This document shows, piece after piece, positions 58,858 through 63,657 of a stretch of 64,000 nt of DNA; the stretch's first letter is position 1, and every line of letters starts with the position of its first letter. The notes below the pieces were generated by a model. The model did not search any database. It saw only the letters and a list, made by a program, of their open reading frames with translations, and was not told where the DNA came from. The stretch lies in contig JAQBQT010000011.1 of assembly GCA_028286835.1 (NCBI GenBank), positions 5,246 to 69,245 of the forward strand, in the 5' to 3' direction. Source of the DNA: Candidatus Parcubacteria bacterium. Its GTDB lineage: Bacteria; Patescibacteriota; Minisyncoccia; Phycocordibacterales; PALSA-1337. The position numbers were made by a program, and so were the translations under genes.

Positions 58858-59089
58858 CCGACTATTGTAGTAAAGGGCACGGCGAAAGGCAATCGCACCG
58901 GCAAAAAATCTTCATTGACAAGAATGTTCTAATACTATGGTGAAATATTCCAAACGACGTTACAGATACTCAATCTTTTAAAACACAATTTCTATGAAAT
59001 GTGAATGAAAATTCCTGAACTGAACGAGAGAGCATTATGCCACAGGGTGACGTGGACACACTGGCATGAAGCAAATCGTTCCAGGCTCC

Positions 59090-60046
59090 CTATACCCTTA
59101 AATACCTTCGTGCCGCGATATAGCTCGATAGTCCGCCGAGGATTATTCCCGCTCCCATGATGACCGAGAAGAGTTCAGTGAAATTCGTCGAGAAGTAGCG
59201 CGAGAATACGTTGATAGCAAAAGAGAAATTCTGGGCGACATCGACTCCGGCAACGCGCAGGATGAGCGCATCGCTCCAGTAGGCAGCAGCAGCAAGAATG
59301 ACAAGCGTTATGAGCGCCGAAACGACGCCATACATTATGCCTGCGACGACGAGCGGGCCGCGCACGTACACATTGGAAGCGCCGACGAGCTTCATGACCG
59401 CGAGCTCATCGCGAACGGTATAGGTGATCAGGCGGATGGTATTGAAAATGACGATGGCCGCGACGAGAGCGAACACTATGGCCAGAATGGTCCCAGTCTG
59501 CTCCACCGTCGGGATGATCCGGTTCAAACGATCGATGACGAGCTTGTTCTCCTCATAGTTAATCTTGTCGATAATGGGCGTTCCCGAAGAGTCGGTCGGA
59601 TTCTTGTTCTCAAGATATCGCGCGATGCCGCCGTATTGGCCGGGATCCTTGGCCTTGATATTGAGCGATGCTGGAAAAGGATTGGCACCAAGCTCCTGAA
59701 GGCCCTGCATGATAAGCGTATTGTCTTTCCACTTCGCCTGGAAATCAGACATGGTCTGCTCGCGGGAGATGTATGTGGTCGTGGAGACTTCGGCGAGGCT
59801 GTTAACTTCCTGCTGAAGGGTGAGGATATCGGCTTCCGGAGCCGCGAGCGCAAAATACACGTTGATATCAACCTGGCTTTTGACCTGCTCGAGGAGCGAG
59901 CGACCAAAAGCGCCTGCGAAGATGAGGCCGCCAAGCGTCAAAAGAGACAGGGTGATGACGACGATGGCCGCGAACGACAGAAAGCCGTTGCGCCAGAAGC
60001 TCACGAAGCCGGTACGAGTTATGCGCTTGAATGTCGTCAGGATCAT
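59090..60046 (-). CDS. ftsX: cell-division ABC transporter permease FtsX
   Basis: Four TM helices with a periplasmic domain between TM1 and TM2. Lies downstream of the ftsE-like ATPase gene. Confidence 0.85.
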   Translation of the reverse strand: MILTTFKRITRTGFVSFWRNGFLSFAAIVVITLSLLTLGGLIFAGAFGRSLLEQVKSQVDINVYFALAAPEADILTLQQEVNSLAEVSTTTYISREQTMSDFQAKWKDNTLIMQGLQELGANPFPASLNIKAKDPGQYGGIARYLENKNPTDSSGTPIIDKINYEENKLVIDRLNRIIPTVEQTGTILAIVFALVAAIVIFNTIRLITYTVRDELAVMKLVGASNVYVRGPLVVAGIMYGVVSALITLVILAAAAYWSDALILRVAGVDVAQNFSFAINVFSRYFSTNFTELFSVIMGAGIILGGLSSYIAARRYLRV

Positions 60047-60076
60047 CTTAGTAGTATACCACTATGCACACCGCTC

Positions 60077-60757
60077 CTACAGGATATATTTGCCTTCCTT
60101 GTCGTCGCGGACGACTTTGCCCTTCTCGATAGTGATAACGCGGCCGCCGACTGTGTCGACGACGCCCTTGTTATGGGTCGTAAGGAGGATGGTCGTGCCG
60201 AGCTCGTTGATCTTCTTCAAGATGCGGACGATCTCGTATGTATTCCCTGGATCGAGGTTGCCAGTCGGCTCATCGGCAATGATGACGTCCGGCTGGGTGA
60301 CGATGGCGCGCGCAATGGCGACGCGCTGGCGTTCGCCGCCCGAGAGCTCGCGAGGAAAATTCCAGATCTTGTGGCCGAGGTCGACCAATTCGAGTACGTG
60401 CGGCACGTCAGCCGCTATCTCGCGGTCCTTGCGGCCTGATGCCTCCATGGCAAAGGCGATATTCTCGTACACGGTCTTGGTCGGAATGAGACGATAGTCC
60501 TGGAATACGGTGCCGATGCGGCGGCGGAGCTTGGCTGTCTGGCCTTTTGAGAGCTTGTGGATATCAGCCGATTCAAAGAAGACTTTTCCATCAGTCGGCC
60601 AATCCTCTGCGATGAGCAATTTGAGAAGCGTCGATTTGCCGGCACCTGAATGGCCGACAATCGTCACGAATTCTTTAGGTTCTATGCCGAAACTGACCCC
60701 TTCGAGGGCGACGGTCTTGTCAGGATATACCTTGCTGACTTTGTCATAATAGATCAT
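60077..60757 (-). CDS. ftsE: cell-division ABC transporter ATP-binding protein FtsE
   Basis: Walker A GHSGAGKST, signature [14 protein letters not shown], and Walker [12 protein letters not shown]. Confidence 0.9.
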   Translation of the reverse strand: MIYYDKVSKVYPDKTVALEGVSFGIEPKEFVTIVGHSGAGKSTLLKLLIAEDWPTDGKVFFESADIHKLSKGQTAKLRRRIGTVFQDYRLIPTKTVYENIAFAMEASGRKDREIAADVPHVLELVDLGHKIWNFPRELSGGERQRVAIARAIVTQPDVIIADEPTGNLDPGNTYEIVRILKKINELGTTILLTTHNKGVVDTVGGRVITIEKGKVVRDDKEGKYIL

Positions 60758-60774
60758 CTTCCGATTATAGCACT

Positions 60775-61662
60775 TTATAGCATTTTTTCTGCCTCTATGA
60801 ACTCATCCAATTCGCCGTCGAGCACCTTATCCACCTGAGAAGTCTCCACATCAGTGCGGTGATCCTTGACCATCTTGTAGGGATGGAGGACGTATGAGCG
60901 TATCTGGCTTCCCCATTCGATCGAGGCCGTCGACGAGATCTGCATGCCTTTCTCCTTGGCGATGCGCTCGTCTTCGAGGCGCTTCCAGAGCTTTGCGCGA
61001 AGGATGTCCATCGCCTTCTCGCGATTCTGGGCCTGCGAGCGCTCCGATGTGACATGAATGGATATGCCGGAAGGCTTATGGAGGAGGCGCACAGCCGTCT
61101 CGCGCTTATTCACGTTCTGGCCTCCGGGACCGCCTGACTTGGCGATCGAGATCTCAAGATCGCTTTCAGGAATGGCCAGGTCGGCTGCGGATGTCTTCTC
61201 GAATCTCGGGATCACTTCGACGAGCGAGAATGAGGTCTGGCGCTTGCTGTTGGAATTGAACGGCGAGATGCGCACGAGGCGATGGACGCCCGACTCGTTC
61301 TTGAGCGTGCCGTATGCATTCTTGCCCGTGACCTCCACGGTTATGTTGCGGTAGCCCCCGTGATCATTCTCGTTGGCATGGACGACGGACCAGCCCCACC
61401 CCTTTGCGTCCGCATACTTGCGGTACATCTTGAGGAGCATCGCCGAGAAGTCTTCCGCGTCGTCCCCGCCCGCACCTGAAAGAAGCGAGAGGATCGCGTC
61501 CCCTTTGTCGTACTTCCCGATGCCTTCCAGGTCGGATTTGAGGTCCTGCAGCTCCTTGACGCCCGCCTGCGCCTTGGCCTTGTCTGCCCAGAAATCCCCC
61601 GAAGCCATTGCTGCTTCAAGAGCGGCGATTTTCTCCTGTATTTTTTCCCTTGTATCTGACAT
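60775..61662 (-). CDS. prfB: peptide chain release factor 2, encoded as a single uninterrupted ORF with a short N-terminal domain
   Basis: SPF tripeptide motif ([16 protein letters not shown]) and the GGQ motif ([17 protein letters not shown]). 295 aa, compared with ~365 aa in E. coli. No CTT-TGA-C shift site or short upstream 0-frame ORF was found. Confidence 0.85.
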
Positions 61663-61673
61663 TGATTTACATC

Positions 61674-62138
61674 TTACCCCATCCGCCTCAAAACAGAAAA
61701 GTTAAGTTTACGCGCTTCCTGAGATCGTATGCTTATAGCCCTATTCCTCCTTCCTTTTCCTTTATTCAAACCAGCATAGGTCAAAGTTAAGGCATCGCAG
61801 TTTGGGCAAATCAAACGAAGATTACTTTCTAAATTATTACGCCAATTTCCATCCATATGATCTGCAACCAGAGGGACCTGGCCTGTCTTAGGATGAACTT
61901 CGCACCAGCCGCATATGCAGCACTTATTGCCATACTTCTTCCTCAAATATTTCTTAACGTATTTAGAGACTATGCCAAGACTTTGTAATCCCGTCTTCTC
62001 TCCCTTTTTCCACTGCTCGATATAAATACTGTACTGATATTCCAATTGGCAATTATTGCTGCAGTATTTACGTCTAGAATGGGAGTTCGGTTTTTGGCAA
62101 TTCAGGCATTTATCTTTGATGGATTTGGATATAGCCAT
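61674..62138 (-). CDS. HNH endonuclease (zinc-binding HNH nuclease, homing-endonuclease-like)
   Basis: CLNCQ..C..C and [36 protein letters not shown] carry the H-N-H plus CxxC motifs. The ATG at 62138 was chosen because the track ORF extends into the tRNA-Thr gene. The stop lies 11 nt upstream of the prfB ATG. Confidence 0.75.
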
Positions 62139-62197
62139 AAGACATCTTATTATTAAAGAATAATCGAGACTGTATATTTCACTTTTCCTCCCTTCTG

Positions 62198-62270
62198 AGC
62201 CGAAGGCCGGGATTGAACCGGCGACCCCATCTTTACGAAAGATGTGCTCTACCAACTGAGCTACTTCGGC
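62198..62270 (-). tRNA. tRNA-Thr (anticodon CGU)
   Basis: Acceptor GCCGAAG/CTTCGGC, D-arm GCTC-AGTTGGTA-GAGC, anticodon arm CATCT-TTCGTAA-AGATG, T-arm GCCGG-TTCAATC-CCGGC. Confidence 0.88.
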
Positions 62271-62412
62271 ACCTATGCGTATGCGCTCCGTACTCTAGCA
62301 AAATCTATGCCCGTGGACAAATGCGCGTGTGGCCAAGCGTATTGACCAAAGACAAATGATATGGGAGGGTGAGGCTAGTACAATAGAACCCTCAAAATTC
62401 AATATTTACACT

Positions 62413-63048
62413 ATGAACGCAGAAGAACAGCTTGACTCTCAGGCCTATCCAGCTGCAAGGCCACTCCTTTTAGTCGTCGCTGGTCCGGCAGGATCCGGCA
62501 AGACAACGCTCTGCGACCGCCTGATCCATGAGCATCCTGATTTCAACAGAGTGATCACCGCCACCACGCGCAAGCCGCGTGAAGGAGAAATCGACGGGGT
62601 ACATTACCACTTCCTCGATGTATTCCAATTCCAACAAAAAATAAACCGGCATGAGTTCATCGAATGGACATCGGTCCATAGCGCAAACCGCCTTTATGGA
62701 ACCCTGAGGTCCAGCGTCATCGCACCGTTGCTGTTCGGGAAAAACCTTATTCTGAACATCGACGTAAAGGGCGTCGAAAGCTTTAGGCAGATGGCAGCAG
62801 CCAATACTCTGATCAAACATTCCCTTCATACAGTGTTCATACGTGTCGACCATAAGAAGCTCCTCGAACGCATGATCACCCGGGACAAGGATCACCCGGA
62901 AGAGATCGCCCTCAGAATGGCTACAGCCGAAGCAGAGATGCTCGAAGCGCCGAAATTCGATTCCGTGATCGAAAGCGGTACGCGAGACGAGGACTTTGCC
63001 TCGCTCTGCTCGATCGTGCAGAAGGCACGCGCTCGTATCGCCGCTTAA
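62413..63048 (+). CDS. gmk: guanylate kinase
   Basis: P-loop GPAGSGKTTL, TTRKPREGEIDGVHYHF, and the NMP-binding/lid regions. The ATG at 62413 (MNAEEQ) was chosen over the track GTG at 62329. Confidence 0.85.
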   Translation: MNAEEQLDSQAYPAARPLLLVVAGPAGSGKTTLCDRLIHEHPDFNRVITATTRKPREGEIDGVHYHFLDVFQFQQKINRHEFIEWTSVHSANRLYGTLRSSVIAPLLFGKNLILNIDVKGVESFRQMAAANTLIKHSLHTVFIRVDHKKLLERMITRDKDHPEEIALRMATAEAEMLEAPKFDSVIESGTRDEDFASLCSIVQKARARIAA

Positions 63049-63077
63049 GCAGCAGCATAAATAATAGTTGGGGCCCA

Positions 63078-63115
63078 GCACCATCATCGCCTTACGGCAG
63101 AGATGGTGCTTTTTT
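63078..63115 (+). terminator. rho-independent terminator after gmk, abutting the 3' end of tRNA-Thr(GGU) on the opposite strand
   Basis: GCACCATC-atcgccttacggcaga-GATGGTGC followed by TTTTTTT. Confidence 0.6.
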
Positions 63116-63191
63116 TGGAGCCGTTGTCCGGGATTGAACCGGAGACCTCGTTCTTACCAAGAACGTGCTCTACCAACTGAGCTACAACGGC
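63116..63191 (-). tRNA. tRNA-Thr (anticodon GGU), CCA encoded
   Basis: Acceptor GCCGTTG/CAACGGC, discriminator U, CCA present. Anticodon arm CGTTC-TTGGTAA-GAACG, T-arm TCCGG-TTCAATC-CCGGA. Confidence 0.88.
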
Positions 63192-63218
63192 ACTGGCTAT
63201 CAAACGCCTCGCGAACTG

Positions 63219-63292
63219 CGTACCCGATGGGATTCGAACCCACGACCTCTCCCGTGACAGGGGAGCGTTCTAACCAGCTGAACTACGGGTAC
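63219..63292 (-). tRNA. tRNA-Asp (anticodon GUC)
   Basis: Acceptor GTACCCG/CGGGTAC, discriminator G73, anticodon arm CTCCC-CTGTCAC-GGGAG, T-loop TTCGAAT. Confidence 0.85.
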
Positions 63293-63384
63293 AATCGAAG
63301 AAAGAAACCTTCGTGCGTGCCCACTAATGTAGCAGAAAGGAGCCGAAAATCAAAGCGCGCCGGATCCCCCTATTCCCCTTCGTG

Positions 63385-63458
63385 TGTCGGCGGCAGGACT
63401 TGCACCTGCGACCTAGGGCTTATGAGTCCCTCGCTCTAACTACCTGAGCTACGCCGAC
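63385..63458 (-). tRNA. tRNA with CAU anticodon: elongator Met or lysidine-type Ile2. Non-canonical T-loop (TGCAAGT, G at position 55) and an A31.G39 mismatch.
   Basis: Acceptor GTCGGCG/CGCCGAC (7 of 7 bp), D-arm GCTC-AGGTAGTTA-GAGC, anticodon loop CTCATAA. The T-arm GCAGG-TGCAAGT-CCTGC is closest by eye to E. coli tRNA-Ile2 (GCTGG-TTCAAGT-CCAGC). Confidence 0.7.
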
Positions 63459-63579
63459 AGATCTGAATTCGAGCCAGCCTCGATACGCCATACAATAAAC
63501 GAAAAACCCCCTCTCCGCAATGAGCGATGCCCCAAAAGCTTGCACAAAGGGCTTTTTTGTGGGAAACTATTGCCTACAT

Positions 63580-63651
63580 CGCGGGGTAGGGTAACGGTAA
63601 CCCGTCAGGCTCATAACCTGAAAATTGGCGGTTCGATTCCGCCCCCCGCAA
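63580..63651 (+). tRNA. initiator tRNA-fMet (anticodon CAU)
   Basis: Begins CGCGGGG and ends CCCCGCA-A, so C1.A72 is unpaired as in the E. coli initiator tRNA. Anticodon arm TCAGG-CTCATAA-CCTGA, T-arm GGCGG-TTCGATT-CCGCC, discriminator A. Confidence 0.85.
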
Positions 63652-63657
63652 CACGTT

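Follow-up and report, generated by a model that had tools for sequence, protein, structure and literature searches.

A shortened release factor 2 gene and a tRNA-Thr-linked HNH endonuclease gene as neighbours in a Parcubacteria genome

The 64,000-nucleotide (nt) stretch of Candidatus Parcubacteria bacterium contig JAQBQT010000011.1 analysed here (the window) carries a prfB gene encoding release factor 2 (RF2) that lacks both the autoregulatory +1 frameshift and most of domain 1, and that is preceded on the same strand by a gene for an HNH endonuclease and by a tRNA-Thr(CGU) gene. The favoured reading, to which a probability of about 0.75 is assigned, is that prfB encodes the housekeeping RF2 of Parcubacteria/Paceibacteria, that the HNH gene encodes a free-standing homing endonuclease tied to tRNA-Thr, and that the two are independent neighbours. 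Relatives without the HNH gene carry prfB of the same length (293-302 amino acids, aa), and therefore the link between the HNH gene and the unusual structure of prfB that an earlier, sequence-only reading of the locus had raised is abandoned; the short domain 1 and the missing frameshift are traits of a subclade and not of this locus.

The RF2 protein and its gene

The 295-aa protein is encoded by a single open reading frame (ORF), and its identification as RF2 in the sequence-only reading holds. The SPF tripeptide, within RISPFNS (residues 133-135), aligns with the SPF of the Bacillus subtilis and Escherichia coli RF2 structures, and GGQ (residues 180-182) lies in the RF-1 (peptidyl-tRNA hydrolase) domain (Pfam RF-1, E 1e-35). 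The best profile match is TIGR00020 (prfB; 351.4 bits), with lower scores for prfA (229 bits), prfH (90) and ArfB (48). The TIGR00020 cut-off of 370 bits is not reached, although no other family comes within 120 bits of prfB; the shortfall arises because domain-1 positions are missing (profile positions 1-110 are barely matched). The Pfam PCRF match covers only profile positions 95-194 of 194, i.e. the last 100. Over their full length, domains 2-4 can be aligned with solved RF2 structures (E 1e-68), at 43-47% identity. The protein thus shares with canonical RF2 (TIGR00020; structures 1GQE, 9FY1 and 4V5E) the SPF and GGQ motifs, the PCRF and RF-1 domains and, presumably, UGA/UAA decoding and the chemistry of hydrolysis; it differs in its length, in the absence of about 25 codons upstream of the shift site, in its score below the NCBIfam cut-off and, in relatives of the window, in a gene start placed at the 3' end of a tRNA gene.

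The protein is approximately 70 aa shorter than E. coli RF2, and the earlier estimate of a deficit of about 40 aa in domain 1 is replaced by two losses, one of about 24 residues at the N-terminus and one of about 47-50 internal residues. Residues 2-46 align to E. coli residues 26-72, the residues equivalent to E. coli 73-119 (approximately) are absent, and the missing first 24 or so residues are exactly the portion that is encoded before the shift site in E. coli. In place of a complete four-helix domain 1 (about 110 aa) there are about 46 residues forming a two-helix hairpin (residues 1-46). An AlphaFold2 model, used for the N-terminal helices only (mean predicted local distance difference test score, pLDDT, 62.9), places helices at residues 2-20 and 28-46 (pLDDT about 80), leading straight into the first strand of domain 2. 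These retained helices correspond to α2 and α3: domain 1 has lost helix 4 and, from helix 3, its distal half, and the helix 2/helix 3 hairpin stays. In E. coli RF1 complexes, α2/α3 of domain 1 contact L11 and RF3 (PMC3677378).

The short form is found throughout the lineage, as the sequence-only reading had proposed to check. At least 8,000 RF2 homologues were detected in a search of 5.8 billion proteins; the best 120 are 74-100% identical to the window RF2, nearly all are 293-302 aa long, and those that are named derive from Parcubacteria, Patescibacteria or Minisyncoccia metagenome-assembled genomes (MAGs), including a 100% match on a 'Candidatus Parcubacteria bacterium' contig. The prfB ORF is intact and of similar length in all 80 species-level genome loci examined. 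Among 1.8 billion representatives of 50% identity clusters, only six short RF2 clusters were found; the next-best matches have 337-370 aa, some of them lacking the first helix only, and one Wolfebacteria-type cluster has 347 aa; hardly any taxon names are on record for the clusters of intermediate length. The short RF2 thus marks a large subclade of Parcubacteria/Paceibacteria, and its origin looks stepwise. Many short homologues are publicly named only 'PCRF domain-containing protein', because the truncated domain 1 puts them just under the TIGR00020 cut-off, and for the identical protein of an NCBI MAG a later start has been annotated (277 aa). No prior description of a clade-wide RF2 with a vestigial domain 1 was found in the open-access literature searched.

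The window prfB has no autoregulatory +1 frameshift. The 840 nt upstream were scanned for CTTTGA-type heptamers and leader ORFs that might represent an upstream exon or shift site, and no functional one was found; neither a short frame-0 ORF ending in CUU UGA C nor a Shine-Dalgarno (SD)-like element 3 nt upstream of such a site, as in autoregulated prfB genes, is present. The sequence-only reading was right about the missing leader, but it had overlooked one CTTTGAC heptamer (61780-61786, minus strand), identical to the E. coli prfB shift site and situated inside the HNH ORF. Its +1 frame is that of prfB and meets a TAA at 61704, 13 codons before the prfB ATG; the 13 in-frame codons upstream of the ATG include no start codon, and the heptamer has no SD-like element or initiating leader ORF. 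It was rejected as a shift site and is regarded as a chance match. In relatives there is no space for a leader ORF, because tRNA-Thr(CGU) abuts the prfB ATG. Genes for prfB without a frameshift are of a kind already known from a minority of bacteria (PMC12421855), with which the window gene shares a single ORF, no in-frame UGA and no SD-like stimulator. The searchable text of that survey mentions neither Patescibacteria or the candidate phyla radiation (CPR) nor N-terminal truncation; compared with the frameshift-less genes as described in that text, loss of the shift site here coincides with loss of the whole upstream coding segment.

The junction of tRNA-Thr(CGU) and prfB

Two points went beyond the sequence-only reading, namely the abutment of tRNA-Thr(CGU) on the start of prfB in relatives and the association of the HNH family with tRNA-Thr in both Patescibacteria and phages. 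A tRNA-Thr(CGU) gene lies on the same strand 5' of prfB in 61 of the 80 genomes; at 26 of these 61 loci the prfB ATG is 25 nt or less from the discriminator base of the tRNA, and at 11 it is 3 nt or less. The junctions read GGC-T-C-ATG (eight loci), T-CC-ATG and T-CCA-ATG; in T-CC-ATG a potential CCA would share its A with the ATG. The abutting loci are L001:902-980, L002:3926-4003, L179:2925-3003, L021, L035, L049, L050, L054, L058, L064 and L074, and they include the closest relatives, L001 (87% RF2 identity) and L179 (89%). An abutting ORF was found at 22 of 136 distinct tRNA-Thr(CGU) genes and at 1 of 166 other tRNAs, which makes the abutment specific to this tRNA.

The same junction is occupied by other genes in some genomes. 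A 111-aa TfoX_N ORF lies between tRNA-Thr(CGU) and prfB, 1 nt from each, in L180 (2664-2999; 88% RF2 identity), and unrelated genes (rlmH-like, putative transposase-like ORFs and kinases) were noted there in other relatives. The tRNA-Thr(CGU)/prfB junction is, by these gene orders, an apparent recurrent insertion point. In L084 the same tRNA junction precedes a gene of the metallo-beta-lactamase fold instead of prfB.

Sequence TGCTAGAGT, about 21 nt 5' of the tRNA, is common to the window, L001, L002, L179 and L180 and is presumed to be the promoter of a tRNA-Thr(CGU)-prfB unit. No -10 hexamer was found between tRNA and ATG in any of 18 abutting junctions, and prfB must therefore, by anatomy, be co-transcribed with the tRNA. 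In the ancestral arrangement, prfB starts within 1-7 nt of the discriminator base of tRNA-Thr(CGU), and most likely its mRNA is left leaderless, or nearly so, when the 3' end of the tRNA is processed. This mechanism is proposed because about half of the genes have a -10 element about 6 nt before the ATG and nearly none has an SD. Among the 60 long ORFs of the window, TANNNT is found 5-8 nt before the start codon in 29 (at exactly 6 nt in 17, and often preceded by TG), compared with 1.7% of internal start-like codons, and SD-like 4-mers were found at 5. These frequencies suggest that the mRNAs of the organism are predominantly leaderless. No prior description of leaderless mRNA in CPR bacteria was found in the open-access literature searched.

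Arrangements of this type are known elsewhere. In mitochondrial 'tRNA punctuation', an mRNA co-transcribed with an upstream tRNA is freed by tRNA processing and is leaderless. In E. coli, the tRNA-Thr gene thrT of the thrU-tyrU-glyT-thrT-tufB operon is followed by the translation-factor gene tufB, with a leader of about 100 nt containing an SD between the two. The relatives of the window resemble both in the predicted co-transcription of the mRNA with an upstream tRNA, and differ from E. coli by direct abutment. To our knowledge, direct abutment of a tRNA and an AUG has not been described for any bacterial chromosome, and no description of such a junction in a genome rich in leaderless genes was found in the open-access literature searched.

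An HNH endonuclease family associated with tRNA-Thr genes

As the sequence-only reading had it, the HNH ORF ends 11 nt before the prfB ATG in a different frame (an offset of 14 nt, or 2 mod 3) and is not an intein. The protein consists of an N-terminal CxxC…CxxxC zinc module followed by CxxC…DH-DGNWRNN-E-NLRL-CPNCD, so that the D-H…N…N motif is flanked by two CxxC zinc-binding pairs. C73-x2-C76, D93-H94, N98/N101/N102, N106 and C111-x2-C114 are invariant in 26 family members and all are kept in the window copy. Matches were obtained to PHROG HNH families (E 3e-14) and to the PADLOC 'homing endonuclease' profile (6e-11). The catalytic ββα-metal motif is shared with I-HmuI and the Pfam HNH_3 homing endonucleases (lvaDHiDGNwrNNiesNLRl in the window protein, lvvDHkDGNkdNNlstNLRw in I-HmuI; about 26 residues, E 0.11); unlike the window protein, I-HmuI is encoded in an intron and has neither of the two CxxC pairs. 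With an AlphaFold2 model (pLDDT 77), Foldseek retrieved HNH nucleases only, weakly (E of 0.047 or more).

The HNH gene is absent from the locus in the closest relatives (L001, L179 and L180, 87-89% RF2 identity) and in L002-L009, in agreement with the earlier view of a mobile gene inserted beside a tRNA. It was found at 2 of the 80 RF2 loci (L010 and L041) and as a remnant at one more (L080); another degenerate copy is present in L130. The family comprises 1,243 detectable homologues, none more than about 70% identical to the window copy. At nine HNH loci fetched via individual proteins, tRNA-Thr(CGU) directly follows on the same strand (the tenth, L091, ends too early), as it does at 75 of 77 informative metagenome loci. 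In 52 loci the HNH reading frame runs into the tRNA gene and ends there, typically at the TAG of U8-A9-G10, which gives C-terminal tails of P-E, P-K, P-I or P-N. A tRNA-Gly(CCC) or tRNA-Thr(GGU) gene is often located 56-190 nt upstream, and most cassettes contain TTGAC-17-TATAnT ending 6-8 nt before the ATG. Pairwise identities over 24 loci (276 pairs) average 0.70 for HNH proteins and 0.55 for RF2 and are uncorrelated (Spearman -0.02). The gene thus shows two marks of a homing gene, sporadic presence at a conserved site and divergence uncoupled from that of the host.

Homologues were also found in 141 phage records, and of seven that were inspected, six are immediate neighbours of a tRNA-Thr gene, placed before or after it. 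The HNH gene follows tRNA-Thr in four phages (a T5-like Klebsiella phage, where the distance is 15 nt, Streptomyces phage Jada, Xanthomonas phage XbC2 and Salicola phage SCTP-2) and precedes or overlaps it in two (Synechococcus phage DSL-LC03 and Enterococcus phage iF6); in DSL-LC03 the coding sequence overlaps the 5' end of the tRNA by 9 nt, as in Patescibacteria. The phage proteins have 34-50% identity (L198:638-1110, L194:1397-1884, L196:1355-1875, L197:285-1099, L200:276-1081 and L195:1501-1931). The phages with HNH homologues span T5-like, jumbo, cyano-, Streptomyces and Enterococcus phages. The order found in the window (tRNA-Thr, 59 nt, HNH) is rare in Patescibacteria and normal for the wider HNH family. 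A cassette 3' of the tRNA could have arisen by a left crossover in the 3' half of the tRNA with loss of a second tRNA, or by direct insertion.

The HNH gene appears, from this distribution, to be a homing-type selfish element targeted to tRNA-Thr genes and inserted at the tRNA/prfB junction. Going by gene anatomy and by the precedents of T4 SegB and T5 F-Tfl, the endonuclease probably cuts or nicks the tRNA-Thr gene in alleles that lack the HNH gene, which would then be copied in beside the tRNA during repair; in the window, a cassette of about 530 nt (spacer and ORF) would have landed exactly between the 3' end of the tRNA and the prfB ATG. Homing endonucleases of tRNA clusters are of a kind already known: SegB is located in the T4 tRNA cluster, recognizes the tRNA TψC motif and has its stop codon cut off from the ORF when the 5' end of the downstream tRNA is processed (PMC2330249). 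Like SegB (GIY-YIG) and T5 F-TflI/II/IV (HNH), the window family consists of free-standing nuclease genes wedged in beside tRNA genes (PMC2330249), and the anatomy in which SegB loses its stop codon is the same as in the 52 loci with the HNH stop inside tRNA-Thr(CGU). The family differs in belonging to Patescibacteria chromosomes, in keeping to one tRNA identity (Thr) and in being known from sequence alone, and SegB is of a different nuclease superfamily. A tRNA-Thr-specific HNH family common to Patescibacteria and phages was not found to have been described in the open-access literature searched.

The spacer between tRNA and HNH in the window resembles those at loci where tRNA-Thr(GGU) precedes HNH, sharing ATAT(A)CAGTCTC and …GATGT..ATGG with the spacers of L094, L143, L147 and L152, and contains weak promoter-like hexamers (TATACA-16-AATAAT, and TAAGAT 5 nt before the HNH ATG). 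The 11-nt spacer GATGTAAATCA between HNH and prfB has no SD; joined to the HNH stop codon, it gives TAAGAT, which resembles a -10 hexamer and lies 8 nt before the prfB ATG. In the window, prfB might be expressed by read-through from the tRNA or from the weak cassette promoter, by re-initiation 11 nt past the HNH stop, or from this TAAGAT. A scan of 60000-62500 for promoters and terminators yielded nothing above shuffled expectation and no intervening terminator-like element on the minus strand. Two copies of the 8-mer TAAGATGT were noted, one shortly ahead of the HNH ATG (62142-62149) and one over the HNH stop before the prfB ATG (61669-61676, minus strand), with TAAGAT placed like a -10 box in both copies; such a repeat is within chance for the size of the region.

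At some of the loci compared, a tRNA-Thr(GGU) gene is split in the anticodon loop by a conserved insert of about 180-200 nt (L010:3141-3406, L041:3115-3381, L094:2181-2430, and also L012, L032, L046, L060, L123, L135, L141, L170 and L177). The insert is conserved across 15 loci, and is present at 2 of 2 HNH-positive and 4 of 78 HNH-negative RF2 loci, counts on which a possible link between the putative intron and the HNH gene ('collaborative homing') would rest. A permissive Rfam scan gave a weak group I intron signature (Intron_gpI, 16 bits, E 0.07), and no group I intron was called by Rfam at the gathering threshold; the split genes were missed both by ARAGORN and by Rfam at that threshold.

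A more ambitious combination of these findings is put forward tentatively, with the odds somewhat against it: that an essential RF2 with a vestigial two-helix domain 1 receives its mRNA 5' end from 3' processing of tRNA-Thr(CGU), as a bacterial 'tRNA punctuation' feeding largely leaderless translation, and that an HNH family of Patescibacteria and phages homes to this same tRNA, with RNase P throttling the family's own expression through removal of the stop codon.

Alternative explanations and wider meaning

Several observations weigh against the favoured reading. The window HNH protein scores 15.8 bits with Pfam HNH_3, below the gathering threshold of 24.8. The GC content of HNH genes tracks that of their hosts (rho 0.76) and most copies are intact, which fits long residence as well as recent homing. 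Patescibacteria usually have HNH followed by tRNA-Thr(CGU), the reverse of the order in the window; a tRNA remnant downstream of the window HNH gene was considered as a cause and rejected, the best match being 8 nt, a length reached by 7.6% of shuffles (p about 0.08). The search for a second prfB or prfA covered 64 kb, and a second full-length RF2 may be encoded elsewhere. The leaderless prfB mRNA made by tRNA processing is inferred from gene anatomy, and GGAGG, from the 3' strand of the tRNA acceptor stem, stands 6-9 nt before the ATG in 9 of the 18 abutting junctions.

This GGAGG belongs to tRNA-Thr(CGU) variants with a GCCACCU acceptor, whose 3' strand is GGAGGTGGCT (L035, L050, L064, L074, L053, L001, L005, L048 and L004), and suggests that folding or processing of the tRNA might compete with translation initiation. 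The corresponding alternative, that prfB is translated from the unprocessed tRNA-mRNA precursor through this motif, so that tRNA maturation and translation compete, is considered unlikely, but it is the strongest of those weighed. It accounts for GGAGGTGGCT(C) at those nine junctions and for the absence of promoter hexamers between tRNA and ATG. The motif is, however, absent from the other nine junctions and from the window tRNA (CTTCGGC or CTTTGGC acceptors), the nine positive cases are not independent since they share one acceptor-stem variant by descent, the motif would be base-paired in the folded tRNA, and across the window SD-like motifs are rare (5 of 60 ORFs) and leaderless-type promoters common (29 of 60).

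A lower probability attaches to the view that the HNH protein is not selfish but a nuclease kept by the host and coupled in function to tRNA-Thr, for example in the processing of tRNA or other RNA or in defence. Its very tight linkage to a single tRNA species, the intactness of all invariant residues in the window copy, pairwise identities of 57-86%, above those of RF2 in the same genomes, the correlation with host GC and weak matches to ZorE defence HNH profiles could all be cited for it. The two intact copies and one remnant among 80 species-level RF2 loci, with none in the closest relatives, point the other way, as do the divergence uncoupled from that of the host, the occurrence of the same family beside tRNA-Thr in unrelated phages, the best profile matches to homing endonucleases and the degenerate copies (L080 and L130). 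As to the age of the insertion, low GC as proof of a recent arrival is weakened: HNH genes are on average richer in AT than host prfB across loci (GC at third codon positions, GC3, averages 0.35 and 0.48, respectively, and is lower in HNH in most of 43 loci; in the window, HNH has GC 0.41 and GC3 0.44, prfB 0.57 and 0.74), yet they follow the GC of the host.

The 295-aa protein could instead be a paralogue of RF2 specialised for rescue or an auxiliary role, in the manner of PrfH or ArfB, with the real RF2 encoded elsewhere in the genome; this is very improbable. The score under the trusted cut-off (351 versus 370 bits), the loss of most of domain 1, as in PrfH, the generic NCBI names of many members and the inspection of 64 kb of the genome allow for such a paralogue. 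PrfH (RF-H, TIGR03072) is likewise a class-I release factor relative without domain 1, but it lacks SPF-type codon recognition and pairs with RtcB, whereas the window RF2 keeps the helix 2/helix 3 hairpin and scores only 90 bits with the prfH profile (cut-off 167), and its neighbours are a tRNA gene, ftsE and ftsX, not RtcB; the ArfB profile scores lower still, at 48 bits. The intact SPF and GGQ, the full alignment of domains 2-4 with RF2 structures and an ftsE homologue accompanying prfB at 72 of 80 loci, usually just 3' of it, are further points for a housekeeping RF2. TGA ends 7 of the 60 long ORFs of the window and TAG ends 24; therefore the genome requires RF2 function, and it must encode an RF1 beyond the window. 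Searches of the window with RF1 and RF2 (tblastn) recovered this gene only, no prfA is present in 0.9 Mb of relatives' loci, and no translational GTPase is encoded among the ten largest ORFs of the window. Judging by its conserved domains, the short RF2 should still terminate at UGA and UAA. An assembly chimera, which an abrupt fall in GC across the HNH segment (0.36-0.42, compared with 0.56-0.61 around it) and a gene order atypical for Patescibacteria might suggest, can be dismissed because the separately assembled contig L178 (Logan SRR13312974) is identical base for base over both tRNA-HNH-prfB junctions, HNH genes are richer in AT than their hosts at most loci examined and the order of tRNA-Thr followed by HNH is common in phage relatives.

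The features of the locus are listed in the table below. Upstream (62329-63652), gmk lies on the opposite strand, followed by a minus-strand cluster of tRNA-Met, tRNA-Asp and tRNA-Thr(GGU) (63458-63116) and a divergent tRNA-Met (63580-63652). In relatives, tRNA-Thr(GGU) directly precedes tRNA-Thr(CGU), or a same-strand kinase gene lies between the two; therefore the region upstream has been rearranged in the lineage of the window.

Table. Positions, in window coordinates, of prfB, its neighbours and associated sequence elements
Feature	Position	Strand	Remarks
prfB (RF2)	60775..61662	-	295 aa, single ORF without frameshift, stop TAA
Spacer from HNH stop to prfB ATG	61663..61673	-	GATGTAAATCA, 11 nt
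Free-standing HNH endonuclease gene	61674..62138	-	154 aa; ATG 62138, TAA 61676-61674
Spacer from tRNA-Thr(CGU) to HNH	62139..62196	-	About 59 nt; part of HNH cassette
tRNA-Thr(CGU)	62197..62270	-	Native gene
Extended -10-like element TGCTAGAGT	62292..62300	-	About 21 nt upstream of tRNA-Thr(CGU); based on sequence conservation
ftsE (ABC ATPase)	60077..60757	-	Conserved downstream neighbour of prfB; TGCTATAAT 6 nt before ATG
ftsX	59090..60046	-	Conserved downstream neighbour; TATACT 6 nt before ATG
-10-box example before ftsE	60758-60777
-10-box example before ftsX	60047-60066
-10-box example before pyrG	58858-58877

The short RF2 amounts to a natural experiment on the role of domain 1, and a clade with a domain-1 stub of 46 residues suggests either RF3-independent recycling or a different contact. 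For annotation, it means that many RF2 genes of this group are at present under-named because of a curated cut-off. The junction of tRNA and AUG and the many -10 boxes 6 nt before start codons suggest that the Patescibacteria, still largely uncultured, start translation mostly on leaderless mRNAs, which would bear on gene calling, start-site annotation and heterologous expression for the whole group. The HNH family, with more than 1,200 members, is a clean and abundant example, in cells and phages, of homing-type nucleases that keep to one tRNA identity, and could provide a nuclease whose target is defined and conserved.

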